From positions 111,798 to 175,797 of the forward strand of contig NIVC01001870.1 of assembly GCA_002269645.1 (NCBI GenBank): a stretch of 64,000 nt of DNA. The letters run 5' to 3'. A program made the translations under genes and the position numbers. The notes beneath the pieces were generated by a model that ran no database searches, was not told where the DNA came from, and saw only the letters and a list, made by a program, of their open reading frames with translations. Of the stretch, positions 25,311-64,000 are shown in pieces (the first letter of the stretch is position 1; every line of letters starts with the position of its first letter). This stretch comes from Macrostomum lignano. Its lineage: Eukaryota.

Positions 25311-25394
25311 CCGCCGAGGACTTTAGTCGCTCAGCAGGCCACTGCTGAGACCGCCTCTGCGCCTGTACAGAACTCTGCACCCAAGCGACCTTGA

Positions 25395-40016: not shown

Positions 40017-43000
40017 ATGGATTCTGATGCGAGTTCGGATTCATCTGATTCGTCTAGCTATTACTCAACTGCTGACGAGACTGTTGATGAGTTTGAAGAT
40101 GAGGTAGAGAACCCAGGAGTCGAACACGTTGGTGAGTGGCACATGGTTCAAGCTGACACAATCGACCATCAGCCTTGCCTGAATTCCTCGGTACCCCCGG
40201 TGCACGACCTGATTGGCATTCTCCACATGCTGCGGATGGAAACGAAGAAGCTTTCCTGAAGCTATTTCTGACGGATCAACTGTTTGAAGATATTAGCCGA
40301 TGGAACAACGTAAAAGCTTGGAAGATCTTTCAGGAGGCAGAGACTCAGGATGCTGTACCGAAGCTGGTGTTAAACTGGCGTGATTGCTCCACTAATGAAG
40401 CTCGAAAGTTGGTGGGCATTGTGCTGCTCATGGGAGTCGACAAGAAGCCAGAAATAGCCCAGCTACTGGTCAACCGACCTGATCTTTCACTGCCCGTTTC
40501 TTTCCAAGCCTTTCTCTCTATCAAGAGACCGATTTAAGCAGCTCCTGTCGTGTCTCCGTTTCTACGACTGCTCCGAGGCTTTTGGTGCTGGTCCATTGGC
40601 AAAGATGAAGCCCTTTCTCGATCGTGTGAGGCACCTCTGCAGCAATAACTACATGCCCCGACAGCGACTTTCAATTGATGAGACGCTGGTGCTTTAACAA
40701 AGGGAGTTTTGCTTTCAAGCAATATATCCCGTCGAAGCGAAGCAAGTATGGAATAAAGCTGTACTGCCTCTGCGAGACTGAGAGTTCATATTTATGGAAC
40801 TTCGTCATGCACACGTCTCCTGAGGTTAATCAACAGTTTGGTGAACGACTCGGATGTCAAGGCTTGAGTATGAGCGAGAGTTGTGGCAGAGCTGTGCCAG
40901 GGTCTTCTCCATCTCAGACATCATGTGTTCACTGATAGTTGGTTTACATCACGCCGGCTGGCCGATTGGTTGCTGCAACACGATACGCTGCTGACCGGGA
41001 CGGTGCGGAAGGATCGCGGCATTCCCGCTGATTTGCAGGCTCTCAACATCCACCCAACTTCATCTGTATTCGCACGTTCAGGTGACCTCTTAGCGTGTAA
41101 ATTTGTCGACAGGAAGCAAAGCGGCACCAAGACTCTGTATTCGCTGGACACGGCGGGCAAGGCAGAATGCATTCAGGTTCAACGCAACCGTCGCGGTGGT
41201 GCAATGCAGGTGGTGCAAAAGCCTGCTAGCGTGCTTGCCTATTCTTCCAGTATGAGCGGGATTGACCATTTGGACGCCTCAATGCACCCGTATCTCGCGA
41301 ACCGAAAGAGCATGAGCTGGTTCCACAAGCTGACTTGACTTACTTGACTTAGCTGCAGGGTGGTCCGTAGACACAGCGGGGAGGTGAGGGTCGCCCATTC
41401 CGCTAGCCCCTGATTCCGCTACCCGCTAGCCCCGGGTGTACTGCTGTCGGAGTGGATGACAATAGTCTTTCCTCTCGTAACCTTGGCGTTCAGCTCTGCA
41501 GCGCAAGAGCTGATGGCAAGGACTTCGTTCTGGAAGACTGTGGAGAGTCTACCAGTGTGCTGGGCATGCGTGGCAATGACGCGGCCGTTGATGATGATGC
41601 AGACCCCAAAGCCGGCGTGACCGTCTTTGATGGATCCGTCCGTGTAGCAATGGACCTCCTGGAAATTCCAGTGGTCATTGGCAGCATCCCTAGAGGGGAT
41701 GGTGACCTTGTAGCGCTGAAAGAGGTTGAGAGTGCGGGGTTCGCCGTCAGATAAGACGTGGAGCCCGCCGCTGTCTCTCAAGTCCTTGAGGCAGAGGTCG
41801 GCGTGGGGCAGAAGCTTGCGCTTAGCCATGGCCCTATGGGGCTGGATTCGAATGCCAGCGTCAGCTAGACGACGGGCAGTCTTAGCCGCTTCCCTGCGGA
41901 CAAAGATGTCCAGCGGAGGAATGTTGAGGAAGGCGTTGAGGCCATCGTAAGGAGCAGACGGAGGGGCGCTCATGATCGTGCGACATGCGCGCCCTTACGC
42001 TCTCCTGAGAGCCTCTAGACAGGTCTTTATCTGCAGGGCGCTAGCCCAGATCAGGCCGCCATACGAGATAGCGGGCCTAACCATTGCAGTGTAGATCCAC
42101 CAAAGGCGCTTGGGGGTGAGCCCCCAGGTGGTGCCGACAGCCCTGCGCAATTGCGCGAGGACTGCGAAGGCCTTTTTGGCTTTTGTTTGAACGTGGGGTG
42201 ACCAGTTCAGCCTGTGGTCCAGGGTAATACCCAGACATTTAGTCTGCTTGCAGAAGGGGATTTCCCTTCCGTAAAGCGTGAGCGGTCGAATCTGCCACTT
42301 GGTCCTGCTGGTGAACATGATCGCTGCGGTCTTAGTCTCAGAGAGCCTTAAACCACAGCGGTCCGCCCATTGCTCAGCGGCGTAGATAAAGTTCTGAAGA
42401 AGGTCCCTGAGGGTATCAGGGGACGGACCAGATGCCACCGCGGTGACATCGTCCGCATATCCAACTTTCAGAATGGGGTCAGGCCGAACATCCCGGAGGA
42501 GCTCATCGATGACCATATTCCAGAGAACTGGAGACAGCACCCCACCTTGCGGGCTACCTTTGCAGACGGGGACCGTCCTCTGGTAGCCCAGCAGACTGGC
42601 GGTGGCCGTGCGATGGCTGATCATGTACATGATCCATCTGGTGAGATGTGAGTGCGTTTGTCTCTCACGAAGAGCTCTTCGGAACGCCTCAAAGAGGACG
42701 TTATCGAAGGCGCCAATGGTTCCACAAGCTGGGATTTCATCTTCTTGCGATGCTTGTGCGGAACTCGTGGGTGATCTACCGACAGTCAGATGGCACAAAG
42801 ACCTTTCTGCAGTTTCTGAGGCTGGCAATAAAGAGTCTTGTGGAGGACGCTGGGGTTGCCAGGAGACGTGGACCTACACCAGGTGGTGCTGGCGCTCTTG
42901 CTATTGGGCGCTCGTGCTGACGCCCATTCGCCTGCGCCAAAGGCTCCAAGAATCGGAGATGTCGTGTGTGCTATGCAGCTGGCCAGGTCAAGAAGACTTT

Positions 43001-44409: not shown

Positions 44410-45860
44410 TTGACCTCCAAAAGTCTTAAGATTTGCAGTAAGCAAATTCTACCTGTCGTTACTGCGGTAGGTCCCACCTCGAAGGACGAAGGTAAATGTC
44501 CGGCCTACGGAAAGACCTGTATGAAGTGCGGAAAAAAGAATCATTTTAGCAACGTCTGCAGGTCTGGAGCTACTCGTTCGCTGCACCACACGACGGCAGA
44601 CCAAGGTGACGAGGGCAAAGAGCCATCTCATTTACCGGGATCCATCATGCACCTCACCGACGCCAGTTCTGTGCATGCTATAAGCGAGACTATCGAAACG
44701 GTGGTCGTCGACGGCAGAAGCCTGAGGATGCAAGTTGATACTGGGGCGTCTGTCTCAGTGATTTCAAGCGCGCAGTGGATTTTGCTGGGTCGCCCGCAGC
44801 TGCAAAAATGCTTTCGCCGCCTTGAGGCCTTTGATGGTCACGTCATGCGTACACTGGGCAAATTGTGCACCGCTGCACAGCTCCGAGGACGTTTGCACCC
44901 AGCAGAGCTTATGGTTGTTGCCTCAAGCAAGGCTCATGGTCATATCGACCGTGATCTACCACAGTCAGATAAACTCTTTCACGCCACGGCCTTGCCATCC
45001 GACAACCAGCAGGCTGTGGAACCTCTGCCGACAATTAAGGGCGTGAAAGCCAAAATGGAGCTCGTGGACGGAGCAAGGCCACAGTTTTGTAGGGCTCGGT
45101 CCGTACCAATCGCACTGGAGGCCAAAATCAACGCGGAGCTGGATCGATTGCAAATGTTAGGCTTCATCGAGCCCATTGAGGGCCCTGTCAACAACGCATC
45201 GCCCGTCGTGTGGGTGGAGAAGAAGGATGGCTCCTTGAGAATGTGTTCCGACTATAGCGTACACGTTAACACAAAGATCCAATCAGATTCCTACCCCATT
45301 TCAAACGTGACGATGTTCTCTTGGCTCAAGAATTCAAAGACATTCGCTACTGTGGATTTGAGTTCTGCCGATTGGCAGATTGAATTGGATGATTCCGCTC
45401 GGGATTTATCCGTAATAAACACATCCCGGGGGCTCTACAGCGTCAACAGGCTTCAAATGGGGATGAAGAACGCTTCCTTCATTTTCCAGCGCACAATGGA
45501 GTCCATTTTGGGTGATATTAAAGGTCTACTCATCTACCAAGATGATATTCTCGTACACGCACTGGACGCAGTCGTCTTGGAGAAGCGACTAGCGGCAGTC
45601 AGGAAGCGCCTCACCGAGAAGCGAGTGACTATAAACGAATTGAAGTGCATCAACTATTCTGACTCTGTGTCATTTCTAGGCTTCCGGATTTCCACCGCCG
45701 GAATCCAGCCAGACGAGCGTCTCGTAGAGAAGATTCGCCATGTATGCGTACCGAAAAACAAGACGGAACTCTTCCAGTTTCTAGGTCTAGTCTAGTCAAT
45801 TTCTTCGGAAGATTGATTCCGATTGACAACTGCTCCGCTTAACAGACTGCGAAAGGCTGA
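44410..45860 (+). pseudogene. pol: Gypsy (K02A2.6-like) gag-knuckle/protease/RT fragment
   Basis: CPAYGKTCMKCGKKNHFSNVC, QVDTGASVS, YQDD. A 5-bp duplication (ctagt) frameshifts it at about 45790, and it ends at a (GACA)n microsatellite. Confidence 0.88.
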
Positions 45861-46282
45861 CAGACAGACAGACAGACAGAAAAGCAGACAGACAGACAGA
45901 CAGACAGACATACAGAAAGGCAGACAACTCACAACAGCCACCCGCAATTGCACCGGTGGGTATTCACGCAGCCCAGATGCTGTCCCGCTTGCCACTGCTG
46001 CAGTGCCAGACCTGCTCCCTGTGTTTGCGAATATTGTACGACGAATTCGAGCCTCGAACTCGCGACCTCCTGGCCAGATTGGCGGCCGAAGCGGAGCCGA
46101 TCCAGCAAGAAGCGGACTGAGTTGCTTGGTTAAAGAATGACTTGTCAATCAAGCGCAAGTCGCTTAAAAATGCGACCTAAATATATTCACATACATGTAT
46201 TGTACGGTTTTAATAGCATTTATAACCAAACTTGGTCAAAGAGGATTCTACAACTTAAATTAATTTGGTTATATATATTTAA

Positions 46283-47060
46283 CTAGCAATCTAGTGCCCC
46301 CTTCGGGGGGCGCCCAATAAGCAGAAGACGAAAATCCTTCAATGATAAACCGACGGATGTCCAGAATACCGGAAAAACAGCCACTTCTGCTGCAGCCGAA
46401 AACTTAAAACCGAGTTTATATGGCTAAAACTGCTGCTAGTACGTATGTAGGACTAGCAATCTAGTTCCCAATAAGCTTCATGGGCGCCCAATAAGCAAGA
46501 GAATAAACTTATTTATAAGAAAGCTCATTCTCTTAAGAGCATATTTCAGTTTTAAAGTCACCTTTTTCGTGTAAATTGTTCCAAAAATGGAATAAAAAAA
46601 AAAAAACTACATGCTGCTTCTGACTTCTCAGCCTTGAAATCTCAGCAATCCCCCCCCCAGTAAGCCTTGCCATCTCAGCAATTCCTCCTAAGGTTGACAT
46701 CTCAAGACATAAACATTTCTTAAATTACGTTTTTTATATGTTTGATTTGAGGCTTCTTGCATGTTTTACATGACGAAACTTTTATGTTTGACGTTTAATA
46801 AAAGGTTTAAATAAAAAACTTTACACTACTGAGATTCGAATCCGGAATTCAGCCAGTCAGTTTTTTATCTGGCATTCTTACAATGCATTTCAAATCGGAA
46901 AGTCTGCTTGACCTTTGCATATAAGCATGTTTTTCGAATATTTGATCCCTTTAGCATTGAGAAGTTTCTTAGCCAAGGCACGTGTACCGTGAAAAAAATT
47001 TCTGATCGAACGGTGCAATTAAGCTTGAAGAAAATCGGTTGAGCCGTTTTTTTCTAAAAA
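46283..47060. mobile_element. Possible Helentron/HINE-like non-autonomous element
   Basis: Duplicated actagcaatctag...gcccaataag with a GC hairpin (46283, 46453), internal copies of the 28-bp satellite unit (46620-46710, minus strand) and aaaatcggttgagccg near the other end. Confidence 0.3.
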
Positions 47061-47099
47061 TCCACCAAATGTCCGCGCTGGTCCCGGTCGAGTCCGCAG

Positions 47100-48130
47100 C
47101 TTCAGCTGGCTCGGTCCCGGCTGCTGGACCGTCAGGTTCGTCGCTCTCGACTGATCGGCTCTGCAGTTGGTCGGCATGACGGCGCCAGGTCAGCCCGTCG
47201 CTCGTTTAGACTCGGAAGCTCAGCGGCCCCGTCTGCTCGAGAACTTTTGCTGGCTGCCAGGCCGCCGCATTAGGCCGGTAGTCCCTGGCCTCCGACCACT
47301 GCTCCGGCAGCTCTCGCGCCCGCCCATCGTGCTGTCGTTTCTGGGCCGATTGCTCTCGCAGTACTCGATCCTGGGCTGACGGCCGCAGCAGATCCATTCG
47401 AGTCCGGAGCTGCCGCTTCAGGAAGAGCTCCGCTGGTGTCCGACCGGTCGTTGGGTGCGGGCTATCTCGGTAGCCCAGCAGCCAGCTGCACAGGCGGATG
47501 TCGAGGTCCGGCTGACTGCTCCGTGACGCCTCCATGGTCATCTTGAACGACTTCACCAGCCGTTCCACCAGTCCGTGGGTCTTGGCGTGATACGAGCTAT
47601 GGACTGCTTCTTGCATGGCGAATTAAATTTGCCTTTCAGACATCGCTAAACCCCAGGCTGATGAATGCTGGACCGTTGTCCGATACGAGTTCTCGATACG
47701 AGGCCCCATTGTGCAAACAACGCTCGCAGCTTGCGGACCAGCTCGGCCGATTTGAGTGTTGACACGGCCTCCACATGCGGCCACTTTGAGTGCGCGTCCA
47801 CTACGAGGAAACTGGCGCCCTCGGACCGGTTCGGCAAAGTCAAAGTGGATGCGGTCCCAGGGCTTGTCTGGCCACACCCAGGGGTGCAGTGGAGCCAGCA
47901 CCGGATGCAGCTTAATGGATTGGCAGTCTTGGCAGCTACTGGCAACCAACTCGATGTCGGCATCTATTCCTGGCACCCAAACAAAAGCTCTGGCAACACT
48001 TTTCATCCGAATTGTTCCGGCAGCTCGCGCAGAACTCCAGATGCAGGAATACAACCGCAGCAAGGAAAAGGGCCGAGAGCGGTGAGATGAGCTTGTTCTA
48101 GGTATAGTGAGACGCATAAGTATCACCAAA
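47100..48130 (-). pseudogene. int: Gypsy (K02A2.6-like) integrase fragment
   Basis: RMKSVARAFVWVPGID..IE...CQDC, PWDRIHFDFA, VVDAHSKW, GLVERLVKSFK, TTGRTPAELFLKRQLRT; frameshifted. Confidence 0.88.
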
Positions 48131-50726
48131 CCGGCTTGGGCCGAGAAAAGGGGTGAGTAACAGACAGGGAAGCCTCGCCCAGTCAAACTAGCTGGTTTTC
48201 AGACGGCTATCCAGGACAACAGGCTCTATATGCTAGAGACAGCCAGTGTGCCGTGTTTCCTGCTACATCTGCCTGGCCAAAGACCTTTCCGTCACGTATG
48301 GAGCCAACGGACTGCCGCTAAAAGAAATCATTTTCAGCGACCCACTGAATGGAAGAAAAGCTTTGAATTTCAGCCAGCTTGTGAATCCCATGTCCAGAAT
48401 TAAGAATTGGACTGAAGATTCCTGCAAGGCCGAGTCCTCACCCGAGAGCTGAGACCAAGCTGGTCTCCAGTCTGCTGGATGCGGTGCAAGACCTCTTGGA
48501 GGAAGCAGAAGGGCTGGCTAACAATCGGACTGTGAGCGATATGGATATTATGGGTATTTATTACTACTTATCGCGCTTTTAAGTATCGATTTTCAGATGT
48601 TTTGACGCAAAAAACGCAAATTATACTACTATCTGAATTAAGTAAGTAGTATATGAAAACGTTATCCTAAGCGTAATATATGTATACATAGCATACTTCT
48701 ATATGTACTCGCATATGTACATTAATCCCTATCTATCTCAAATTGTATGTGTACATTGTCTACTTCTATGTCTATCCCCAATTCTATATGTACATTGCCT
48801 ACTTGTACAGTGCATACTTCTACATGTAGACTTGCGCATTAATCTACTTCTATGACAATTTCTATATGTTCAGTGTCTATATAAATAATCCCCAATCTAC
48901 ACGACGGCCTCCGCTCTGCGTATTTGAATTGTCAACCCCACAAGATTATATGTACAATTCAAACTCGAAACACTAATTGCTACGTGTACAGCGCAGTACA
49001 TGCGCAGAGGTGGGTCGGTGCGCGCGCGCGATGTACAATCCCATCTACATGTACTGCCAAATGAGTCAACTAACCCCCCAAATTTTATTAAACACGTCAT
49101 ATGCATTGAATAATTTTTTTCGAAATCACTTATACAATACATATGCATTCGTATAGAGCCGGGTTCGTGCGTACAAACTCTCGCCAAGCGATGGGGTGGA
49201 GGTTGCGTCATCCAAGTCTCTCCCCAAGTCTGCCCCCCAAATACAAGACTGTGTTGAAGCAGTGCTTTATATTTCTATTGACAGTGGGTATTATAAAAGA
49301 CGCTTCGTCGCGCTTTAATATCCCCTCGAAGCTCCTATACTGAACGTTTAATCACCCTTTAACTCGGATCATAGTCAAAATTCAACCCCAAGACTGTTCG
49401 AAAACAGCCACCCCTCTGATGTTCACCAAACTCGTCTTCACAGCGCAGACCCCATAGCAAATCGAGCTAAATTAACGCTCGTCCAGCTGTTCTCTCTGTC
49501 CCCCTTCTAAATGCCAAGGAATTTCGACCCTCTCTCCATTTTCAGTGTACAGACAGATCTTTCCACAGCACGGACCCTATATTAAACATCATTCAGCAAA
49601 ACCCTCATCTCTGATTACGTCATCCATACCCCTACAGAAGCAGTTAGCAAGAAACCAACTTTTAATGCACACATCAACCCCGCGAATCTGAGCAAATCCG
49701 AATCCGCCAACCTCTACCTTCATTGACCCAATATCTATCAAGGTACACAGCCTATTAATCAGTGTCTCCACCGCATGCAATTCTGATATACTTGATTCTA
49801 ACACTTTTGCATATTGTCTCTTTGTCGCGACTTTCCTAGTCATTTCTTTAGTTCACCTTCACTTGTCTCTGTTTACTCTGTTTTCTCTCTCTGTCTAGCT
49901 CTGACAATCTTGTTATTCTTATCTCTCTCTCCCTTGCTGCCTTCTGATTGGCTCTCCATTCTCACCTCTCTTTTTAGTCGCGCACTCCACCCCTCTCAAA
50001 TGTTTTATTCTTCTTACGTAACCAAACATTTTTTTCAACTTTGTACGGTTTTTGGCCGTACTTTTACTTTTCTTTAAGATTAAATTTTGCGTTTGCGCTT
50101 TACCAAAATACTGGCATATGCTTCCAGTTTCAAAGTTTCTATGTCTGCTGTGGTCAAATGCAATTATATACTCGTATAATCAAAATGATGAAAAAAAGCT
50201 ACTTTCTGTGGCTCCCATATGTGTGGCATGGTGTCTCAGTAGTATATAAAAAGACGCTTCTAGACCCAGAGCACTTTTTTAATGACCGTTTTAAGGGTCT
50301 AGAGGGGGGACACGGGGGGTAAATAAAAAAACACATCTAAACACCATTAATACATCTAATCACCCATAATCACCCCTAACAATAAAAATCACTTCCAAAC
50401 ACTTCCAAACACTCCCCAACACCCCCCTCGCGTCCCCCCTCTTAAGACCTTACAAACGGCCATTAAAATAAGGTCTGATCTAGAAGCGTCTTTTTCTATA
50501 CTACTACTCTATAACCCCTTGCCCGCGCCGCAGGCGCGAAGGGTCGGAAAGAATAGAAGCTATTTATAGTCAGCTCACCTACCCACCCAACATTCCATTT
50601 AGACCAGATTTTAGACCAAACAAAACTAGACTATCGTTTTGGTTTTCGTTTTCAAAAATTTGGTCTAAAATCTGGTCTAAATGGAATGCAGACAATCTTT
50701 TTCTGTTACTAAAAATAGAACAAAAA

Positions 50727-51125
50727 ATGACACACGTTACACATATGCAAAATCTGAATGAATTGCAGGTAGGAGACCCAGTTGAATACCGAGGTGAGGG
50801 GCTTTTTGATGTGGTTGGAACAGCAGCAAATTTTGTTAAAGACAATATGGGGCTTATAGGGCAAGCTGGCTCTGCAGCAGGCTCTATAACAAATGCTGTA
50901 AAAGGAGGAATTGAAGCAGCTAGAGCGGCAGAAGAACTAAAGAAATTGAGAGATTTTAACGACACCCTCTCACAAATAAATGCAATAAAAGATTTAAAGC
51001 TGGCACAAGCCGCACAACCAACAGAAACCCCCACGAAAAGCGCACCAATAAGTAATAAAGATATTCAGGATTTTAATAAAATGTTAAATACTATTAAAGG
51101 TGGAAAAGGATTAAAGAAATTTTAA
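50727..51125 (+). CDS. 132-aa putative virion/core protein
   Basis: Ala/Gly-rich amphipathic segment with GEG-L and IKGG-KG motifs resembling adenain cleavage sites. Confidence 0.6.
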   Translation: MTHVTHMQNLNELQVGDPVEYRGEGLFDVVGTAANFVKDNMGLIGQAGSAAGSITNAVKGGIEAARAAEELKKLRDFNDTLSQINAIKDLKLAQAAQPTETPTKSAPISNKDIQDFNKMLNTIKGGKGLKKF

Positions 51126-51135
51126 CAATATAAAA

Positions 51136-52122
51136 ATGGACACAGATAACGACCGCTTATATTTTATAGGAGAAATTGTAGATACTTTAGATCTAGATGA
51201 TAATAAACATAGCCACACAATGTTAAAAAGATTGGATCGATTAGGTAAAAAGTTTGACTACGACATCGATACATTTAAACTCGCAGCAAAATATGCACAA
51301 GAAGGAAGGCCAATATCCTTTAAGAATCGCGGCAGAAATTATAGGTTGACAGACTCCGATGTGAAATTTTTAATGGAGACTCACACTAAAAAGGACGGCG
51401 GATTACTACCCATTCTACCGCTTCTTTTAGGACTTGGTGCAGCTGGAGCAGTCGGTTTAGCCGGAAAAAGAATTCATGATAATGTAAAACAGCTAGGAGA
51501 GTTAAGAGCGAAACAGGGGGGAATCTTACCCCTTGCAGCTTTGCTCCCAATAATTTTTGCAGGAATTGGAGCAGCTGGAGGAGTTGCTGGCGGAGCAGCT
51601 GGAATTGCAAAAGCAGTAAATGACAAAAAAGCTGCGGACGAAAAAGCTAAAAGAGAGGCCGAATTTCAAAGACAGCAAATAACGCAGGACGCACAATTTA
51701 AACAAAAACTTATCGATACAATTAATAGTAGTTCAGCAACAGCTGAGCAAAAAAGAAATGCAGAAGCTAGGTTATCAGCTGGAAAAGGGTTAATACTAAA
51801 AGGATCAAATCATGGCAATGGTTTACTTTTACAAGGAACAACCCAAGGAAGTGGAGTTGTAGCAGATAAACTACATGAATTTGGTCAAACTTTAGAAAAA
51901 ACGGGTGAGAAAGCTAAAGGATTTTTTGACAATATTGGATCCAATTTTAGGCCAGCAGTTCAGAAGATTTTTACTAAGTTAGGAAAAGATTTTAATATCA
52001 TTGAAAAACACGACGGAAGCGGATTATATCTCGAAATGAGACCAAAAGCAGGTTCAGGAATTTTCTTAAATTCAAACGTTATGGGCAATGGATTGCTATT
52101 ACCAAAAGCAGATCTCGAATAG
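51136..52122 (+). CDS. 328-aa core-protein precursor with two adenovirus pX-like peptides
   Basis: GG-LLPILPLLLGLGAA and GG-ILPLAALLPIIFAGIG, compared with adenovirus pX GG-ILPLLIPLIAAAIG; repeated GxG(L/I)xL motifs. Confidence 0.75.
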   Translation: MDTDNDRLYFIGEIVDTLDLDDNKHSHTMLKRLDRLGKKFDYDIDTFKLAAKYAQEGRPISFKNRGRNYRLTDSDVKFLMETHTKKDGGLLPILPLLLGLGAAGAVGLAGKRIHDNVKQLGELRAKQGGILPLAALLPIIFAGIGAAGGVAGGAAGIAKAVNDKKAADEKAKREAEFQRQQITQDAQFKQKLIDTINSSSATAEQKRNAEARLSAGKGLILKGSNHGNGLLLQGTTQGSGVVADKLHEFGQTLEKTGEKAKGFFDNIGSNFRPAVQKIFTKLGKDFNIIEKHDGSGLYLEMRPKAGSGIFLNSNVMGNGLLLPKADLE

Positions 52123-52206
52123 GCTCCTGGGGGGAGGGTCTGGACACCAAAAACACAAAATTAAAAAATCAATAATTCAAACATTATATAAATTTTATTC
52201 TATAAA

Positions 52207-55200
52207 ATGGAAGCAATTTTAGCTCAAATCGACAACCCGAACTTAGAGCACAATTAATAGCTCAAATCGATGCACAACGAATTGCCGATAGGGCTGAAAT
52301 AGAAGCAAGAATTAGGGCAGAAAATGAGATACGTTTAGAAAGACAATTAAATGATATTAATAACCCCCAACCACAAGGACAAAATGGAGCTGAAGTAATA
52401 TATATAGATATAGATATAAATACAAATTATAAAGAATATTTTAAACAAATGAAAGATAAATTAAAGACTATATTAAACAATTATACTATAAGGCCAAATA
52501 ACAAACGACAGCCAATTAAGTATAAAATAGAAGTTGAAACAGAATTTAAAAAACCAAATATTCTTAATGCAAATTCAGAAATTGAAGTAATAAATAACTT
52601 TTCACAAGAATCATATAAAACATTATTATCAATGGGAAATTACAACAATCAATTCGATCAAATAGAAGCTGAGTTTGATGAATGGATAGATAAGATGACA
52701 GAAAACGGATCTGGGTTTATATTTGTTTCATGCAATTCAGCAACAGTAAAGATTGCACCCATAGAAATTCTTAAAGGACGATCACATATGAAGCTCAAAT
52801 TTAAATCACCTATGATTATAAATCCAGACAATAAAGATAATAAATGTTTATTATGGTGTTTATTAATTCATAAATATCACAATCAAGTAGAATCACACAT
52901 TAATAAAATATATAATTATAGACAATATGAGGATGAAATAATAATGAAAAACATATCATACCCAGTAGCAATAGATGATATATATAAGATTGAAAAAATG
53001 AATGGTTTAAATATTAATGTGTTTACAATTGAAGAACCAAAAGATCTAGAAGAAATTTTAACCGATCCAGAATGGTATAAGAAAAGGTGTTATCTTGTTA
53101 AGCCAGCAACTGATATAACAGCACCAGATCAAATCGATCTTTTGTACATGCAGCGCGAAAATGAAACACATTATATATACATAAAAGATATTAGTTCTTT
53201 TTTAAGAGAAAATAGAAATAGATATCCACTATGTAGAAATTGTTTTACATTTAAAAAGGATGAAACAGCTCTTAAAAACCACCAACGATTTTGTTTAGAT
53301 CACAAATTTACTAATGCTATAATGCCAGCATCTGAAGATGCAACCCTAAAGTTCCAACAACATTATATGGCAATTAAAAAACCAATAGTAATATATGCTG
53401 ATTTTGAAGCAACAAATGTTCCCTTAAAAGAACCACAAACAGTATCTGATGACGGTGAATGCACAAAAAAATTGGCACAACAGTTTCCGAATAGTTATTG
53501 TATATATGTACACTCCGTAGCTGATCATATATTTAAATCAAGGATGATTACTTACCACGGTAATGATGCAGCTAAGCACATGGCAGAATCATTAGTAAAT
53601 GTATTTGAATATATTCAAAATCAATATGATAAATTATCAAAAAATATTAATATGACAAATAAGGATAGAGACAATTATAAAAATGCAACAAATTGTTTTA
53701 TGTGCAAAAGACATTTAAGTAAGAATAATAAGATACGAGAACATTGTCATCTAACAGGAAATTATCGAGGGGCAGCATGTAGATCATGTAATGCAAAAGA
53801 AGGAAAAGGATGTAAGGAAATACCAGTATTTTTTCATAATGGTTCCGGATATGATTTTCATTTCTTAGTTCGAGAATTGCTTCATTTAGGAAAGGATGAA
53901 TATGAAATAAATATATTACCTAAAACATCAGAAAATTACATATCAATAACATATGGTAAGAAATACTCCCATCTAGTTTTTCTAGATTCCTTGAGATTCT
54001 TATCAACATCTTTAGCAAATGTTGTTTCATCATTAGTTCCAAAACCATGGGATTTAGAAATAGTAAAGAAAAACTTTCCAATCTTATTGAATCGTTTCAA
54101 AAAGAAAAACTATCCGAGGAAGAACTAATGCTATTAACTCGTAAGGGCATCTACCCATATGAATATGTAACATCTGAAGACGTATTTTTTCATACCGAAT
54201 TACCCCCAATTGAAAAGTTTTATTCAACATTATCACAAACAAACATAAGTGAATCGGATTATGAACACGCTCAAAAAGTATGGAAATACTTTAATTGTAA
54301 AACATTTAAAGATTATCATAATCTATATCTTAAAGCAGATGTTCTCCTATTAGCTGATGCATTTGAAAACTTTAGGAATCATACATATGAGAATTTTAAA
54401 ATTGATCCCGCATATTGTTTCAGTGCACCGGGATTAACATGGGCTTGTGGTTTGAAACATACAGATGTTAAGATTGATTTACTAACTGATCATGATATGT
54501 TGTTAATGATTGAGAGAGGAATTCGCGGTGGATTCTCGGGTGTACTAGGAGATAGATATACTAAAGTAAATAATAAATATCTACCAAATTATAATAAAAA
54601 AGAAAAATCATCATATGTATTATATCTAGATGCAAACAATTTATACGGTGGTTGTATGAAACAAAAATTACCAATAGCTGATTTCCAATGGGAAGATGAC
54701 CCCGATTATTACAAAAATATTCCCGAAGGAAGGGGCTGTATTGTAGAGGTGGATTTGCAATATACTCGGGAAGCAAAAGCAAAAACATATAAATATCCTT
54801 TAGCTCCAGAGCATTGTTCAGTTAATGAAGATGATTTATCACAAACACAAAAAGATTATCTTAAAGCAGATAATGCAAAACATCTAGCAACAAAAAAATT
54901 AATATTAAATTTACATGATAAGAAAAACTATGTAGTGCATTATAAGCTTCTACAATTTTATGAAAAGCAGGGATTAAAAGTGTCTAAAGTACATCGAACA
55001 ATATCGTTTATTGAGGAAGATTGGTTAGCTAAATATATTGACTTTAATTCAAATCAGAGACAGATGTCAAAAACAAATTTTGAGAAAGATTATTGGAAAT
55101 TAATGAATAATGCTTTTTATGGAAAAACGGTTGAAAATATTAGAGATAGAACCCAATTCCATTTAGAAAAGGATATTGATAAAGCAAAGAAATATTTCTC

Positions 55201-56170
55201 AAAACCTAACTTTAAAGACTTTATAAAATTTGATGATAACTTTATGGGTATTCATATGAGAAATAAAACAACAAAATTTCTTAAACCAATATTTATTGGA
55301 ATGGTTGTTTTAGATTATGCAAAGCTGGTAATGTATGAATATTATTATGATGTTATAAATAAAACATGGCCAGATAACTATCCAATATATGCAGACACCG
55401 ACAGTTTGGTATTTAAGGTTGAAACAGAGGATCGGGCAAAGCCCGCGAACCAAAGGTTCGATGTCTATAAAGATATGGAAAAAATTAAGGATACACTGGA
55501 TACCTCCGACTATCCGGATAACCATCCTTTAAAATCAGATCAAAATAAAAAAGTTGTACTTAAAATGAAAGATGAATTAAATAGCAAAATCATAACCGAG
55601 TTTATAGCAATAAGATCAAAATGCTATGCATTTAAAGTTTTAGGACAGGAGGGAGAGGTAAAAAAAATAAAAGGGGTATCAAGAGCAGCAGTAAAAAAGA
55701 TAACATTTGATGATTATAAAAACGTACTTTTAGATTACCTTAATACAATTGAAAATTATCATGCTCCACAATATCGATTAAATTCAGATAAGCATCAGAT
55801 GTTTGTCATCGAGACAGATAAAAAAACATTAAGTCCATTTGATGATAAAAGATATTTAGATGATAAAATTAAAACATATCCATATGGTTTAAAAGAAGAG
55901 ATAAAAAATATGATAAAAGATAAAAAACAAAAAGAAGATATAATAAGTAAATATAATGAATACAAAGCGGCAATAAATAATTATTATTACGATTGTGATT
56001 GTGAATCCGAATGTGATTGTGAATATAATACATTTCTAGAATATGAAAAAGATATAGATAATTATTATTCAACATTTCCAAAAGAACTTAAAAAATTAAA
56101 TAAGGAAAAAGTCTTGAATAACTGGAAGAGATTAACAGAAAAATTACTTATCGGGTCTGTAAAAAACTAA
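52207..56170 (+). CDS. polB: Protein-primed family B DNA polymerase with EndoVII-like insert; two single-base frameshifts in this sequence
   Basis: IYADFE, HNGSGYD, YLKADV (Exo I-III); YLDANNLYG, KLMNNAFYGK, YADTDS (pol motifs); CFMC...EHCHLTGNYRGAACRSCN. Frameshifts near 52235 and 54078. Confidence 0.95.
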
Positions 56171-56503
56171 AGCATGTAATTGTTTGAGCAAATCATTAAC
56201 TTCAATTTCATATATTATTGAGCACCAATTATCCTCACAGTCGGCAGGGTAACTTAAACAATCCTTTATTTTTTTCCTAAGTTTTTTTATTTTTCTAACC
56301 AATCTATCTATTTCAATTTCAATTACTATTTCAGCATAAACAATATCTTGTCTTAAAAAACGTTTTCTTTTATCTATCTCATATCGGATGGGAAACATAT
56401 CGTCCCCATACTCATGATATTTCTGAGATATAATTATATTTATTTTTTTATTAATATCATTAAGTTCACGCTCTTTAGTGATAAGGATTTTTATCGTATC
56501 CAT
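56144..56503 (-). CDS. Hypothetical 119-aa viral protein
   Basis: ATG ORF with AT-rich viral composition, converging on polB. Confidence 0.5.
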   Translation of the reverse strand: MDTIKILITKERELNDINKKINIIISQKYHEYGDDMFPIRYEIDKRKRFLRQDIVYAEIVIEIEIDRLVRKIKKLRKKIKDCLSYPADCEDNWCSIIYEIEVNDLLKQLHALVFYRPDK

Positions 56504-56556
56504 TTTCTTATAAAAAATTTAGTCTTCGTCGTCATCCTCCCAAACAGCCGCCAATT

Positions 56557-56850
56557 TTACAGTCCTATCACTCTTTTTATTATTTTTTGTTTTAGTTTAA
56601 ATTGCAATCCACCCTCGTTGCAGTATTTCATAACAAACGCTTTAGGTTTATTAATAACTAAAACAGGAAAATTTTTAACATCATCTCCGCTTAGACATAA
56701 AATTTTTTGCCCATCTAATTGTAAAAATATTGATTGAAGCCCAATAAATTTAACCTGTCTCAAACATATAATATTATATTCTTTATTCTCCAACATATTG
56801 GGTGTGAGATAATTAATCACATTAGAATCGGTTTTGAACCAGCTCTCCAT
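56557..56850 (-). CDS. Hypothetical viral protein (likely start MESWFK at about 56850)
   Basis: ATG preceded by an A-rich leader like the other viral genes; may be frameshifted at the 3' end. Confidence 0.45.
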   Translation of the reverse strand: MESWFKTDSNVINYLTPNMLENKEYNIICLRQVKFIGLQSIFLQLDGQKILCLSGDDVKNFPVLVINKPKAFVMKYCNEGGLQFKLKQKIIKRVIGL

Positions 56851-56877
56851 TTTTAATCTAAAAAAATAACAAAAAAA

Positions 56878-57339
56878 ATGAAAGACATTTATGTTTGTAA
56901 TAAATGTAATGTGACTATGCACAGAGGGCAAACAGCAAACGGAGATATATATCATATGTGTTATTCATGTTCTAAAATATATCAATTTGAAAAAACAAAA
57001 AAGATTGAAAACTCATATTACTATTTTAAAAACACAATTTTAAGAAATCTTACAAGAGACATTTCTGATCCAATTTTAATTCCCGGAAATAATGTTTATT
57101 TATATAATAACTTTTTCCATTTAAATAAAGGAAAGGGATTAAGTTCGAAAGACTCTGAAAGGATTTTAATTTTAGTTGGATATTATTTCAATTTTCTTAT
57201 TCGAGAGAATACAAAGTTTATAAGGATAGGTAACATACCTAACGAAATGTTATTGAAAAAGTCATTGGAATTTTTATGTATTGATAAAAAATTTAAACCT
57301 AGATCAGAAGAGAGTTACCACTTTGGGAAGAATATATAA
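56878..57339 (+). CDS. Hypothetical 153-aa protein with N-terminal CxxC...CxxC zinc ribbon
   Basis: CNKC...CYSC. Confidence 0.55.
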   Translation: MKDIYVCNKCNVTMHRGQTANGDIYHMCYSCSKIYQFEKTKKIENSYYYFKNTILRNLTRDISDPILIPGNNVYLYNNFFHLNKGKGLSSKDSERILILVGYYFNFLIRENTKFIRIGNIPNEMLLKKSLEFLCIDKKFKPRSEESYHFGKNI

Positions 57340-57356
57340 CATATGCATTAGAAAAA

Positions 57357-57985
57357 CTAAACAACCTGAAGTTCTACCGCACTTCCTGACCGCGGGCTTT
57401 GTGCCCCAGTAGCAATAGTTTCAGGTTCGTAAATGCCTAATGTTTCTATAGGTGGAGCTTTGGGTTTATCGAGTCTCAACTCTTTTAATTCCATATCGGT
57501 AAAAGTTTCAACATCTAAAATTCTATTTCTATCTTTTAAATATTTTTCATATAATTCAACCGCGGTTGATAATTCATGAATCGTTATCTCTCCGTCATCC
57601 AATATTTTTTGCACATATAAATATAATTGATTTTTATATTGCTTGGCAACATCTCTTAAAGATTTATATTTTTCCTTTCTTTTTTAAGATATAATTTAAT
57701 TGCTAAAAGTATTGATAAGTTCTGATCATTCAAAACCTGATATTGAGCCAATTGAAATACCTAAAAATAATTGAGATAAATTAAGAGTTGGAATAGATTG
57801 TAAAATACCTAAAACGATTACACATAACATTGATAAGCTTCCAAATCCAATATTGAAAAATCCATATTTCTTATATGGTTTGAAACTCTTCTTACTTTTT
57901 TAGCATATAAATCATAATCATAATTTATTCGATCAACATTACTAACATCTGACCTTTACGTTGGTTGAACCGGTCGCGTTCCCAT
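57357..57985 (-). CDS. Frameshifted Polinton membrane-type protein
   Basis: A hydrophobic stretch (GFGSLSMLCVIVLGIL..LFLGISIGSISG), then LDDGEITIHEL, reconstructed across frames. Confidence 0.45.
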
Positions 57986-57994
57986 TTATCTGCT

Positions 57995-58321
57995 TCAGAT
58001 ACCGACATTCTCGTCTATTTTTAATAGCACCAAAATGAATTCCCCACGCTCTTTGGGGATTTGTCCCGAGCTTAATAGGTATTGTATTGGAGTTATTCTT
58101 TCTTTTTTCTCCCATTTAAATCCTATTTTCCAAAACTCTTGAAGTATAATATGATTTTTTAATAACTTAATTAATTCTTGAAGCTTCTTATTATCCTGAA
58201 CATTTACAGTACTAAATAAAAATTTGGTATGAGATTTGAATGTTTTTATATTTGATTCTTGTTTAGGAATAGGAATAATAACATTATTTTGCCGCATCGA
58301 TGGAGTTCTACTAAAAGCCAT
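57995..58321 (-). CDS. Hypothetical 108-aa viral protein
   Basis: ATG ORF with an A-rich leader, co-oriented with the morphogenetic genes. Confidence 0.5.
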   Translation of the reverse strand: MAFSRTPSMRQNNVIIPIPKQESNIKTFKSHTKFLFSTVNVQDNKKLQELIKLLKNHIILQEFWKIGFKWEKKERITPIQYLLSSGQIPKERGEFILVLLKIDENVGI

Positions 58322-60378
58322 TTTATATAGAAATATTTAAGTATTTCGGTTTGTGGCCGTTCCAAATATGCGGTCGCAGCAAAATCATATCCTGCTGATG
58401 TGCTACCACAAACGGCTGCACCACGAATAAAATGTGCGGCATCTGCTCCTCCAGTTCGAGCACCAAAACCCATAAGAGTTCCCGTTTTATCTAAATCTCC
58501 CCAAGTTCCACTATCATATGTAAAAAAGTTTTGCCCAATTAGCGTATATGTATTAGCTGATACATTGTATGTGCTTATTTGATACCAAACTCTTTGATTT
58601 AAAATATTAATTTCAAAAAGATGCCAATCGCCGTTATCAATATTAGCATAGGTTATAGTTTGATCTGCGTCATTAAGAACATCATTACGAGCTGTTGCAC
58701 CGTCTGATTTTATATTGCTCCAAACAACCCCAACTCTATCATGCCATTCACTCGCAAACACAATCAAGCCGGCGCGGGTTGTTAACCCGGATCCAAATTC
58801 ACTTGTTGGACGTTCGTGACAATATGCATAAAACCAAACCGCATCAGCACCACTTCCTGTAGCATTAGCAACTCGGAAATAGAAGGAGGCGGAGATATTA
58901 CGAAAATGGGTGAAATTAAATTGCAACGCTCCAGACTGACCACTTGCTTCATCAGTAATTCTAGCTCCATTTTGATAATCAATATAAGTAGCGCTACCAA
59001 CAAAACTTCCAGTTGGAAAAATATCACCGGCTGTGGTTGGGTTTTGATATCCAGTCCAATTGCAAATTACAGGCTCGTACAAAGCGGCATCGATTGCAGG
59101 TATTCCATCCAATTTTATTTTATCGTTAAAAGACATTCGGCCATCCGCCGTTTGTGTTACTCGCGTATCAACATAACCTTTAGTAACAACAGAACTGTTA
59201 TTGTTTATAGTAGAGATATTAGTAATTGTATTACCTCCCATATCAATTGATTGATTAACCACTCCCAAATTTAAATCAAGAATTGTAAACGTCTGTCTAT
59301 AAATCTGGAAGGTTGACAGACCCGGGTTGGTTGAACCCGAGTTGATGTAAGACAGAACAATCTGAAATATGAATATGTTTTATCAAAATTTTGTGTGACA
59401 TTAATTGTTTGAGTTGAGTTATTTATTGCTACAGAACTATCCGCAGGTATTAATACGTCCCAACTTGTATTGTCATTACTTCCCTCAAATCGCCATGATG
59501 CTGGGTGCTCGGTTGAAGGTGATGGCCTACCACGTAAATCAATTTTATAACACATTATTGCGGAAGGGCATTGGACTTGAATCCAATAATCGGTTTGAGT
59601 ATTATTTGTTGCCCAATCTGTTGAATCATTTCCATCAAACGCTTTCCAACTTGCAAAATCAGTTGTATTAAATGCAGTGCTTGCGGTTATTGCAAAACCA
59701 TTTCCACTCCAATCTGCCATGGTAGGTATGTGACCAGTTTCAACCGTTTGGAATCGATCTGTTTTGGGCTCCACCCCCAACTAAATTATCAACCTCCGTT
59801 TTGGTATAGGAATCAGTTATATCTCTTTTTAAATTTAAGGAATTATCAACTTCAGTTTTGCTATAAGAATCAGTTATATCTCTTTTTAAATTTAGGGAAT
59901 TATCAACTTCGGTTTTGGTATAGGAATCAGTTATATCTCTTTTTAAATTTAGGGAATTATCAACTTCAGTTTTGGTATAGGAATCAGCAACATTCCGTTT
60001 TAAATTTAGGGAATTATCAACTTCGGTTTTGGTATAAGAATCGGCCGTATTGCGTTTTAAATTTAATGAATCATCTATTTGAGTTCGAGAATAAGAATCA
60101 GTTATATCTCTTTTTAAATTTAACCCATTGTCAACCTCTGTTTTTGTATATGAATCGGCTACGTTCCGTTTTAAATTTAGGGAATTATCTATTTGAGTTT
60201 TGGTATAGGAATCTGCAACATTTCTTTTTAAATTTAGTTTAGTATCAACTTCACTTTTTTTATAACCTTCATCTTCATTAATATATCGGTTATCTCCGAA
60301 TGTAACACTTATTCCACCAGAAGTACCACCACCAGTACTTGATGTTCCGTTCCATGAGGGTGTTCCAGAAAATAACAT
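58246..60378 (-). CDS. Putative fibre/receptor-binding protein (about 700 aa, two frameshifts): 19-aa shaft repeats, discoidin (F5/8C), short stalk, L-type lectin
   Basis: 8 x KR(D/N)xxDSYTKTEVDNSLNL; AS..WKAFDG...WIQV...GR...EGSND..W...YFRL; IDMGGNTITNI...TKGYVD; GADAVWF...GDWH...MGFGARTGG..AHFIR. Confidence 0.75.
59785..60260 (-). repeat. 57-bp coding tandem repeat x 8 (fibre shaft)
   Basis: Directly visible 19-aa periodicity. Confidence 0.9.
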
Positions 60379-60408
60379 TTTTTACTGTCTATTTTATAGA
60401 GTCTAAAA

Positions 60409-60827
60409 TCATCTTAAATACTTCGGGTTTACACGAGCTTCATTCGAAAGTCGATATAAAAAATACAACGCCGCTTGCCCGCAATAACTTTTATCAAAGG
60501 TTTGAAATTGTTCGTGATGATCTCCACATAAACGATTTTTAGTATGATTAAATTTGTCTTTTATTTCCTGTAACGGAGGAAGCGCGTATGAATCAAAAAA
60601 ATAAACAAGTTTAGGTTTGAATAAACTGCTGACCAATGAACACCATTTTCTTTTGTTGTTTCAATATTAACAATGAAACATCCATATTGTGGTAAGTCTT
60701 TTATCTCATCCCGCATAACACATCTGAATGGTTTTATTTTTAACTGCCTCGCCCAATTTGTTAATTCGATATTGCTTGTTGTGTCCGTTCCATATCTTTG
60801 TTTAAAATCATCCCACGTCATGGTCAT
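60409..60827 (-). CDS. Adenain-like cysteine protease (one frameshift near 60620)
   Basis: NGVHWSA (His), YFFDSY (Asp), QFQ..SYCG (Gln/Cys) in adenain order. Confidence 0.88.
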
Positions 60828-60828
60828 T

Positions 60829-61032
60829 TTATGTTCCTGAAAAACTCTTGGTTTTAGTTAGTTTCGTAGGTGTGGGTTTTAACAATTCCTTTCTTATTTT
60901 ATCAGCTTGTAACTGCCTTAATTTTGCTAGTTCTAGTTCGTAATTATCTTCAGCTTTTTTAACTTTTTCTGATTGTTTTTTTATTAAATTATTATCGTGC
61001 TTTGCACGCGAACATGTTGTTCGATTACCCAT
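60829..61032 (-). CDS. Small basic coiled-coil protein
   Basis: MGNRTTC...KLRQLQADKIRKELL, between penton and protease. Confidence 0.45.
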   Translation of the reverse strand: MGNRTTCSRAKHDNNLIKKQSEKVKKAEDNYELELAKLRQLQADKIRKELLKPTPTKLTKTKSFSGT

Positions 61033-61076
61033 TTTTACTATAGGAAACGGACAAAGTCCGTGAACCAAAGGTTCGA

Positions 61077-61862
61077 TCAAACCTGTTTTATACGTAAAAT
61101 TATTGTTATTGATTGCCCACCAAAACTTATTAATCTATCGCTTTCATCTACAATCCTAATATAAATTGATTGAACGCTATATTGATTTAAAGGATAATAT
61201 ATTGGGGTTTGGGGTGCAACAATCATTTTCTCTCCAATTGGAACAGCAAGAAATGGGATTGAATAAATAATTCCACGTTGAACCAAAACTCCGTTATTAT
61301 CTGTTATATAACCACCGTTTGATATGTCGGTTGTTATATTAATTGTATTAACTCCACCCTCAATATTTCCCACTGTATCTCCGGTGCTTGATGTGGTAAC
61401 TATTCGGGAATTAAATCCAAGTATGGTTCTGAGTGAATTTGCAATTGTGAAATCAACCTGATATCCGGATCCTAGTGATAGTGTGAATCTGCCAGACGGT
61501 AAATCAACACCTATAACAATTGCTCCTGTTACCCAATCACCATTAGTTGTTAATTCTCCTTCTATATAAGCATTCAAATCAGTATAGCTATACGCTCCTG
61601 GGTTAATGCTAAATGTTGTCCAATTGGCTCCGGAATCTTTAGAATATCTAAATTGATTATTTGTTGCATTAATTAATTGAGGCATGTTGAAAACCGAAAA
61701 TAGAATTAAACCTATTTGATAACTTAGGCTTTGATCAAGTTGTAATGGATCGCGCAATTGAATCCGTTGCTCGCTGGTTGTCATTATAAACTGTAATGTT
61801 GTACTAAATTTTGAATTAGTTCGATCTACCAATTGTTTTATAGTATTTAAATTTGTAGTCAT
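61077..61862 (-). CDS. Minor capsid (penton) protein, 261 aa
   Basis: Intact beta-rich ORF: LRDPLQLD..YQIGL, NATNNQFRYS, INPGAYSYTDLNAYI, IRIVDESDRLISFGG, typical of Polinton minor capsid proteins. Confidence 0.8.
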   Translation of the reverse strand: MTTNLNTIKQLVDRTNSKFSTTLQFIMTTSEQRIQLRDPLQLDQSLSYQIGLILFSVFNMPQLINATNNQFRYSKDSGANWTTFSINPGAYSYTDLNAYIEGELTTNGDWVTGAIVIGVDLPSGRFTLSLGSGYQVDFTIANSLRTILGFNSRIVTTSSTGDTVGNIEGGVNTINITTDISNGGYITDNNGVLVQRGIIYSIPFLAVPIGEKMIVAPQTPIYYPLNQYSVQSIYIRIVDESDRLISFGGQSITIILRIKQV

Positions 61863-61882
61863 TTTTATAGTGGGAAATTGTG

Positions 61883-62675
61883 CTATGTCTCTTCTTCCTC
61901 ATTATCTTCTTTTATCAAATTTGTTAAAATTCTATGTTTCCTTTCTAACCTCGGATTGATATAAATATGTTTGTATTGGCTATCATCCCAAATTTTTTTA
62001 CACATACTTTTAAATGGTTTTGCATCCAATCCGGGATTAAATCTAGCGTGAATATTTTGTAGATCATAGTTATCTAAATCAAACATTACACAACAGCTAG
62101 CATTCTTTTTTATAATCGATTCTAATTCTCTAAAGGATTGAGTAAGATAAAAAGCTCCAATTCCATCTCCTCTACCACTAACAAAAATTTCCTTTTGCAA
62201 TTCTTGATCACCGTCATTAATACAATCATCAAAAATAATTAGTGTTTTATCATGTTTTGGAATTTGATCATAGGCTAATCGGGTTGATACTCTAACAGTT
62301 GGGGCGCGATCGGACGAAGTCCGCGACCCTTCGGGGCGATCGGTGATGTTTTCTGGCTGTTGTGCCATTGTTTTACATAAATCCTCAATGTCTGCTAGAT
62401 TAAATCGCGGTTCGTCATCATCCTCATATTGCTCATATGCTCTTAACATTCTAAACAAGACATCTTTTTTAATTTGTTTTTTAATCCATGTTTAAGAAAT
62501 TCATAATATTTTATTCTAGGTTTATTAGTATAAATTATTAAATTATTATAGTCTAACATTCCATCTGTTGTTAATAAATCGTAAACAAAGTGTGTTTTTC
62601 CTTTACCTGATCCTCCGATTACTAAACAAAGAAAAGGATCATTTGGAAATATTTATTGTGTTTTGCCTTTACCAT
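61883..62675 (-). CDS. FtsK/A32-like packaging ATPase (two frameshifts)
   Basis: Walker A IGGSGKGKT (about 62596-62622), Walker B LIIFDD, and GRGDGIGAFYLTQSF. Confidence 0.88.
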
Positions 62676-62739
62676 TTTTAAAGAAATAATTTAAATAGGC
62701 GCGACGGTCGGAGACCTGCGACACTAAAGTGGTGCGACG

Positions 62740-64000
62740 TGCTTTGCACTGCACTCATTTTACAATGGTGCGTCCGAACAATCGTGCCATCAGCTTTAGC
62801 AATTGACATATATTCCTCTAGAAACAATACGTGGGCGTCAAGTGCTGATTACCGGTTTTATTAATCTCTAACATATAATTAAGTCCAATATTGGCTACGT
62901 TTTCTTTCTGTGCCGTTAGATCATAAACAACCACTGGATGAATGTTTAGAAACTCTGTGGGTGTGTACTGAGGGACGGCATACGCTTCATTTTTAGCATA
63001 ATCTTGATAATATTTTATAAAATCATTAACATTATTATTTGCTATATTTAAATTTAGGGGGTCTTTAACCGGATAATATTGATCATCAACCTGCAGGCGG
63101 ATATTCTGAACATTAAACTCGTTAATAGCTGCAGCCGCATTGTCTGTTGCGGTGGCTGCTTGTTCTGCTATGGCACCGGATTGAAGCCAATATAAATCCC
63201 CATTTGCTCTTTTACTCCTTCTATTTGTTATCTTAAACCAAACAAAATATATCTCACCCGACGTTTTGATGTCAGTATTTGCCACTGGAATGAATCCTGG
63301 TTATTATTAATGGTTCGCATAAAATGTCGACGATTCAAATAAAATATTTCCTGATCATGCGTTAACTGATTATCGATGTGTTTTAAAAGTGGGGCTGTTA
63401 CCTCAATAGTTGGTACGACTAATTGAATTGAATCTATACGAACTGCTATATCGGTTGAAATTGAGGTTCCATAAAGTATCCTAGGCTGATATCCACCAGA
63501 TATTTGCAACTGTATCCCAAATTTTAATCCTTTCCATACCCGATTTGGTGAGAAAAACCCAAATAGTGGAAAGATTGAAAAGTCCTGCTCATATGCTGTT
63601 GCTGTGGTTAAAACCGCGACTGGGAATTTATTCTGACGATCTATAAAACCAGTATTAATATCTTTTGTATTAGTCATAGTGGTTACAACTGGAACTATGT
63701 TTGTATTAAGGTAAACAATTAGCGCTGCAGTATCTGCACCGGCTGCGTTTTGTACATTAGGTAAAACTACTGCTTGACCCGTTACTTTATCCGGCATCCA
63801 CCCAACATTATCACCAACTTGTTTTGATAAATAAGTATAATTTAAATGTTTCAAAACTCCATTAATCTCTGCGGGGTTTGATGATGTCTCAACCTCAGCA
63901 CCATTAACAGTTAGTTGAGCTTGGGAAAAACATTTATAAAACCAATCATTTTCTATTATTATTCCGGATCGATCTGCGATATCTCCGCTGCAAGAGCAGT
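62740..64000 (-). CDS. Major capsid protein (5' part beyond the window; frameshifts near 63230 and 62845; 3' end approximate)
   Basis: FQWQI...RYILFG-FK, NVQNIRLQVDDQYYP, FIKYYQDY, HPVVVYDLT, in the position and pattern of the Polinton major capsid protein. Confidence 0.8.

Follow-up and report, generated by a model that had tools for sequence, protein, structure and literature searches.

A candidate glycan-attachment fibre with discoidin and L-type lectin folds in a Polinton-like element of a probable animal genome

Introduction

Modular phage-like fibres have been reported across the Polinton-like viruses (PLVs) of protists (PMC12220804). According to the accessible text of that survey, discoidin (F5/8C) domains occur in PLVs of Rhizaria and glaucophytes and laminin G3 domains, which are ConA-like, in those of cryptophytes; in one case phage tail repeats are fused to an H-lectin, and the fibres are proposed to be penton-borne trimers. 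PLV fibres of protists with discoidin or lectin-fold domains are, then, already known. The Ltf fibre of PgVV-14T (Gezel-14T) was detected in purified particles (10.1101/2022.07.28.501842); this virus has an algal host and depends on a giant virus, and the word 'lectin' is absent from the main text of the report. For adintoviruses and animal Polintons, the genes described are those for polymerase, adenain, ATPase, hexon and penton, together with a pX-bearing gene (PMC8502044). The main text of that study describes no fibre among the conserved animal genes and does not use the word 'discoidin'; one map in its Supplementary Fig. S2 has a 'Fiber' label, and its maps of non-animal MELDs have the labels 'Fiber' and 'Lectin' (galactose-binding). 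A further report outlines a proposed fusogen in nematode Polintons and a beta-helix fibre of phage type in oomycete Polintons (10.1101/2023.08.22.554363), and in the main text of another the words fibre, lectin and discoidin are absent (10.1101/2025.04.19.649669).

Here we describe a gene that joins a phage-like repeat shaft, a discoidin domain, a neck and an L-type lectin-fold head, found in a Polinton-like element within a 64,000-nucleotide stretch of DNA, the whole of which we call the window. The gene is like the protist PLV fibres in that phage-type repeats are joined to carbohydrate-binding domains. It differs from them in having no S74 chaperone and in its probable animal host, and the survey, its supplementary Fig. 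S6 aside, describes neither an ERGIC-53-like head nor a discoidin domain and a lectin paired on one shaft (PMC12220804). The Ltf of PgVV-14T, from what the report says of it, is likewise a phage-fibre-like repeat protein of a PLV. Nematode and oomycete Polintons, as outlined above, each carry an element-specific entry gene; the window element has instead a repeat shaft with lectin-fold heads, and none of the element's genes within the window was recognised as a fusogen. LtfA of the tailed phage DT57C (PDB 8HQZ), as far as it is described, has the same 19-residue repeat in its sequence and forms a trimeric fibre, but carries different heads. Its repeat region is missing from the cryo-EM model (PMC10713586), so that the shaft is backed by no solved structure. 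In the literature covered, which left aside subscription papers and some supplements, we did not find this architecture described in an animal Polinton.

Results

From about position 50238 to its end the window is gene-dense, and its GC content falls from about 0.47 to about 0.3. The probable left end of the element (50238..50688) starts with AGTAGT, contains nested inverted repeats and adjoins host-type DNA. Arms of 27 nt that begin at AGTAGT stand 214 nt apart, with arms of 19 nt within them, and there are also perfect arms of 30 nt, 38 nt apart; these two nested systems of inverted repeats suggest a second terminus-like sequence facing the first within 270 bases. The right end of the element and the integrase lie outside the window. 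Two ORFs with Gly/Ala-rich hydrophobic stretches occupy 50484-52122, the second with a weak match to adenovirus protein X (E 0.01), as in the pX-bearing genes of adintoviruses. They are followed on the plus strand (52206..56170) by two pieces of what we take, from motifs plain in the ORF, to be a family B DNA polymerase of the protein-primed type. The first piece has an endonuclease VII-like domain (Pfam Endonuclease_7, E 8e-7), and no polymerase match to the ORF was obtained in Pfam, PHROGs, NCBIfam or a phage tblastn search.

The fibre gene lies on the minus strand, in the same strand block as genes for protease, penton, ATPase and capsid. Directly upstream of it, two pieces at 60409..60857 (minus) presumably encode an adenain-like protease, as judged from catalytic motifs, and had no match in any library searched, Pfam included. 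A candidate penton or minor capsid gene (61077..61898, minus) scores 0.98 by ESM Atlas features against clusters in which the few members that bear a name are Preplasmiviricota. It is followed by an A32-like packaging ATPase in two pieces (61883..62652, minus; Pox_A32, E 0.003 and 0.012, below the Pfam cut-off) and by pieces of a double jelly-roll major capsid protein that run off the window end (62818..63998, minus; DJR-like_dom, E 1e-4, below cut-off). Candidates for the capsid, penton and ATPase genes of a Polinton are all present, the DJR-like and Pox_A32 scores being below cut-off and from fragments. Polymerase, protease, ATPase and capsid genes (52206-63998) are all split in the window, as is the fibre gene.

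Outside the element, a host beta-adaptin gene (9795-18806) is split by introns that are filled by minisatellites. It matches mammalian AP-1/AP-2 beta with an E of 3e-84 over 150 residues, and because of this closeness we call the host a probable animal. Remains of retroelements and transposons, presumably two Gypsy-like pol regions, a non-LTR reverse transcriptase with RNase H and a piggyBac-like fragment by their motifs, lie at 24565-29352, 40874-42873 and 44410-48198. The element is a probable Polinton/Maverick integrated in what is probably an animal genome. Neither the penton nor the polymerase had a relative among the viral contigs searched, and a weak search of longer proteins gave none for the capsid fragment. 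By tblastn, none of 113 loci matches the core genes of the window, a search that divergent Polintons would escape; none of 68 loci with the shaft repeat carries the head or neck of the window, and among the loci and viral contigs searched no second Polinton bearing this fibre gene was found.

Within the element, three minus-strand ORFs can be read as one fibre gene of about 680-710 codons. ORF A (59740-60381) has 212 aa from the ATG at 60378, ORF B (59271-59780) has 169 aa, and ORF C (58246-59379) has 377 aa from stop to stop, the 340 aa stated earlier for it corresponding to a TTG start at 59268. ORF A and ORF C share a frame and ORF B is one base off, so that two shifts of opposite sign join them. 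The first break falls in the overlap of the ORF A and ORF B frames (59740..59780, minus) and adjoins a run of five identical bases; the second was placed by frame comparison in the overlap of ORF B and ORF C (59271..59379, minus). The last 33 or so codons of ORF C (58246..58345, minus) have no counterpart in the two closest relatives, which end before them, and overlap the next ORF; this, together with a length difference found there in two sequencing runs, makes a third break probable. The initial annotation had joined the three ORFs over two frameshifts into one protein of about 700 aa; the ORFs are as it described and the reading as one gene stands, but the count of two breaks probably does not, given the third at the end of ORF C. 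The first Met of ORF B (59720) falls within a stretch matched by phage profiles and that of ORF C (59241) within the neck motif, which makes separate translation of the ORFs unlikely. As to the frame of the last discoidin strand, a seven-sequence profile gave 83.1 bits for the read-through with X vs 83.8 bits without the tail; for the strand in frame C, 28 of 200 shuffled tails scored equally high at the best setting. The N-terminal 38 residues (60265..60378, minus) are rich in Gly, Ser and Thr and are, by their position, a candidate capsid-anchoring tail; they have no family match in Pfam or PHROGs, and no anchor motif was recognised there.

Short reads bear on the nature of the breaks. Among the matches listed were at least 20 runs, all of one organism and from eight studies; they contain about 80% of the words sampled from 52000-59780. 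Contigs of four runs (X1, X4, X11 and X16), one each from four studies, were compared with the window over 50720-59840, a span that stops short of most of the shaft repeat array (59784-60258). Both breaks show a length difference from the window in X4 and X16, with depth there full or almost so; in X4 a single contig of 846 bases covers the two sites. A further difference from the window in these two runs lies close to 58340, the point at which the two closest relatives stop. For runs X1 and X11 no length difference is listed at either break, none of their listed pieces spanning the sites; X11 has a variant junction or loose ends at the first. At the polymerase break a length difference is present in four of four runs. 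Over the whole span there are 33 small length differences between the window and other runs, suggestive of an error-prone assembly. Among the one-base differences (12 of the 33 listed), seven are found in all four runs and eleven have the same direction. Since the contigs also carry substitutions, for example 29 in 4271 bases, they do not derive from the window's own copy.

These short-read data suggest a multi-copy family with an open gene, most likely in the form of a single reading frame of about 680 codons; copies without the breaks are probably present and more numerous than the window copy. The breaks in the window are probably errors of long-read assembly, decay of the window copy being the less likely cause. 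They probably play no part in the working of the gene, most copies in the organism probably being open: the frameshifts are present in the window and probably absent from most natural copies. Separate translation of the three ORFs is largely refuted by the contigs that differ at the breaks.

The shaft (59784..60264, minus) consists of eight full repeats of 19 aa (57 bp) and a partial ninth. The array of 57 bp in 8.3 copies has 79% matches (59784-60258), and five of the nine units have the exact motif YTKTEVD. Among the seven central units, 102, 24 and 114 differences fall at codon positions 1, 2 and 3, respectively; the sparing of second positions is the pattern of a constrained protein. The shaft matches phrog_5004 (E 2e-23) and the tail-fibre family phrog_10305 (E 4e-12) in PHROGs, as well as the sequence of DT57C LtfA (E 1e-7). 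Three copies of 165 residues were modelled as a homotrimer with a score of 0.74, the best of three controls having 0.00; at least 98% of contacts agree between runs, and pLDDT is at least 93. Of the proteins in the calibration, 21 of 30 solved as pairs attained the mark for this score, as did none of 23 solved as single chains; this calibration was for two copies and for microbes, and is only a rough guide for the present shaft. Ten of 27 viral shaft-bearing proteins, chosen from the 68 loci for repeat count and non-redundancy, match a PHROG of the category 'tail', and the repeat is also found in many proteins of no known role. Further occurrences are in gp1.4 of Bacillus phage SPO1 and in the oxymonad Streblomastix strix, where the repeat is carried by many hypothetical proteins that may stem from endogenous viruses. 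A Pfam match of ORF A to YlmH_1st was rejected as an artefact of the repeats, since no single stretch passes.

The discoidin domain (F5/8 type C; 59334..59750, minus) is recognised in ORF B by Pfam PF00754, with 47.7 bits against a cut-off of 28.2 and over profile positions 2-114 of 127. In PHROGs it matches the tail protein family phrog_17517 (E 4e-19), and relatives occur in eight phage records. By these matches the domain is of the type found in phage tail and virion proteins. The neck or stalk (59100..59253, minus), delimited by motif and profile, has the motif DMGG..TKGYVD at 59253-59146, followed by a phage fibre motif of the KxKLDGI type. It matches the tail-fibre family phrog_26630 (E 5e-4) and, weakly, the phage tailspike chains 9m4c (E 0.017) and 9m4d (E 0.044); neck-like motifs are also present in one relative of the head, P0002.

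The head (58396..59079, minus) is wholly in one frame of ORF C, has conserved GAD, SE and RTGG motifs, and is by its modelled structure of the L-type (legume/ERGIC-53-like) lectin fold. ORF C matches no Pfam family, and no L-type Pfam family scored above cut-off among the relatives (PF18483 in 3 of 30, far below it). A phmmer search of ORF C against solved structures gave no match, and the head none among 50,697 phage records. An AlphaFold (AF2) model of the head from 26 sequences has a pLDDT of 86.8 and a pTM of 0.85, as compared with a pLDDT of 32.5 from the single sequence. Foldseek with this model found VIP36 (E 4e-12), and VIA-align found ERGIC-53 (Z 21.6, rmsd 2.9, 209 residues aligned). 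Both methods rank ERGIC-53, VIP36 and legume lectins first, with VIA-align Z of 21.6, 21.5 and 20.1 for ERGIC-53/VIP36 and at most 16 for the first rows that are not L-type. The head shares with ERGIC-53, VIP36 and the M. jannaschii lectin (1r1z, 2duo, 7elv/7exo) the fold, at Z 18-22, and the GAD/TGG pocket loops, but it differs from them in sequence (13-16% identity), in its metal-binding loop and in not being a membrane cargo receptor. Residues of the pocket type are kept among the 26 aligned sequences (GAD Asp in 24, SE Glu in 25, RTG in 24-25), and in a profile alignment the GAD, SE and RTG motifs align with GADG, VEVD and GTGG of the archaeal lectin 7elv. The mannose ligand of ERGIC-53 is contacted by Asp121, Asn156 and Gly251-Leu253, as given in the accessible text (PMC3912170). 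The head has no clear counterpart of Asn156 of loop C, and its loop after SE is short, so that calcium-dependent mannose binding is not to be assumed.

The modules named in the initial annotation are borne out: the eight YTKTEVD repeats, with the further partial unit; the phage-like character of the shaft, by the PHROG tail-fibre profile and LtfA; the discoidin domain, above its curated cut-off; the DMGG...TKGYVD stalk; and the legume-type lectin fold, by its model and Z rather than by a Pfam match. The trimer modelling proposed there as a check came out in favour of a trimeric shaft.

Among 1.84 billion representatives, 34 relatives of the head were found, and those with names are proteins of Patescibacteria. 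The head family occurs at 11 genome loci, six of them from Saccharibacteria/Saccharimonadia and the rest from Binatia, Levybacteria, Nitrospirales and two Hadarchaea. It is also present on one 320-kb viral contig and on low-GC contigs resembling giant-virus DNA, where it is stacked with H-lectin and laminin G. The stack proteins have 960-1250 aa (L020 140-3511, L022 7724-10696, L023 2232-5123, L027 7769-11533 and L028 32-3094) and combine H-lectin with a head-family lectin; two have laminin G3, L027 has a weak discoidin-like match, and L022 and L027 are giant-virus-like DNA by their neighbouring genes. At L029-L036, from Saccharibacteria and other candidate phyla, the head family lies within ORFs of 750 to more than 3000 codons, twice in L032, and is not covered by any Pfam family at cut-off. 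Stand-alone heads of 260-280 aa are found in P0008, P0012, P0020 and L001. In the tree, the window head and two relatives (58% and 65% identity) form a supported clade on a long stem, and the tree points to no donor. The fibre gene is a mosaic of widely mobile modules.

A loose end near 58954, common to three of the four runs, looks by eye like a diverged strand of the head (6 of 10 residues the same). The listed pieces of run X4 are 156-217 nt long over the head, as compared with 4271 nt over the polymerase. Together, piece lengths and shared loose end faintly suggest greater variation of the heads among copies. A swappable head module, as had been suggested, did not emerge from these data: among the 20 of 64 loose ends listed, the one visible variant is, by eye, a diverged lectin of the same family.

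Discussion

What looks new is this architecture, together with its probable animal host and a head family otherwise found in Saccharibacteria, phage-like and giant-virus-like DNA. With a probability of about 0.65, the gene encodes a capsid-anchored glycan-attachment fibre of a Polinton-like particle. The modular receptor-binding fibre first proposed for this locus holds up in its single gene, the trimeric shaft model, both folds and the setting among virion genes, but as an idea it is less new than had been implied.

The repeat shaft is predicted to form a parallel homotrimer, and the modules appear to run in the order shaft, discoidin, neck of phage tailspike type and terminal L-type lectin; in such a trimer, each of the two carbohydrate-binding folds would be displayed three times. 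The N-terminal tail would dock on the capsid, most likely on the penton as in adenoviruses, and the shaft would keep the heads at a distance from the shell. The heads may bind glycans on the host cell surface, matrix or mucus, and this attachment would precede uptake of a non-enveloped particle. Where an infectious stage is concerned, the fibre is no more than an addition to what would follow from the capsid genes.

Given that the head family lies in long prokaryotic proteins and the shaft repeat in proteins without a known role, the modules do not prove a role in the virion. The protein may instead be a trimeric lectin other than an entry receptor-binder, serving to decorate the capsid, to help the particle persist in mucus or sediment, or to act as cargo inside the cell. 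Shaft, discoidin and lectin modules do occur in proteins outside known fibres and the N-terminus is without a recognised anchor motif, but the order shaft, neck and head and the position in the virion gene block suit a fibre, for which related viruses give a precedent; we regard such a lectin as unlikely.

Slightly less likely still is a particle fibre that binds microbial or algal surfaces, on which particles ride food or biofilm into the host. This idea is motivated by the virophage DSLV2, which, as its report describes, binds the LPS of Synechococcus through phage-like tail proteins and enters by bacterivory (PMC12724248). Every named relative of the head is prokaryotic or viral, but the home of a domain's relatives does not reveal its ligand, the window head sits with two relatives on its own long branch, and the solved structures closest in fold are of lectins for eukaryotic high-mannose glycans. 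A fuller version, in which an animal Polinton lineage enters as a naked particle by a fibre made wholly of phage and candidate-phyla adhesin parts, keeps diverging lectin heads among its copies in one host and targets them at microbes of food or biofilm, is improbable. If it were true, hitchhiking on microbes would offer a definite way for Polintons to pass from one animal species to another.

It is very improbable that the window copy is truly decayed, the family no longer particle-making and the fibre a relic. Polymerase, protease, ATPase, capsid and fibre genes are indeed all split in the window, and the contigs, with their substitutions (29 in 4271 bases), are not the window copy. Against this, at 7 of the 12 listed one-base differences the contigs of four studies share a state that the window lacks, and 11 of the 12 have the same direction; with an 846-base contig across both breaks as well, open copies are probably present and more numerous than that of the window. 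That the ORFs give three separate proteins, or a single one by programmed frameshifting, is scarcely credible: relatives do include stand-alone heads of 260-280 aa, but the first Mets of ORF B and ORF C lie inside the phage-profile stretch and the neck motif, other runs differ in length at both breaks, and every core gene has the same kind of break.

As an attachment fibre of a Polinton-like particle, a protein with two carbohydrate-binding folds would be a specific and assayable candidate for the attachment step of animal Polintons. With it, the known use of borrowed phage fibre parts among Polinton-like viruses would reach beyond protists to what is probably an animal host.
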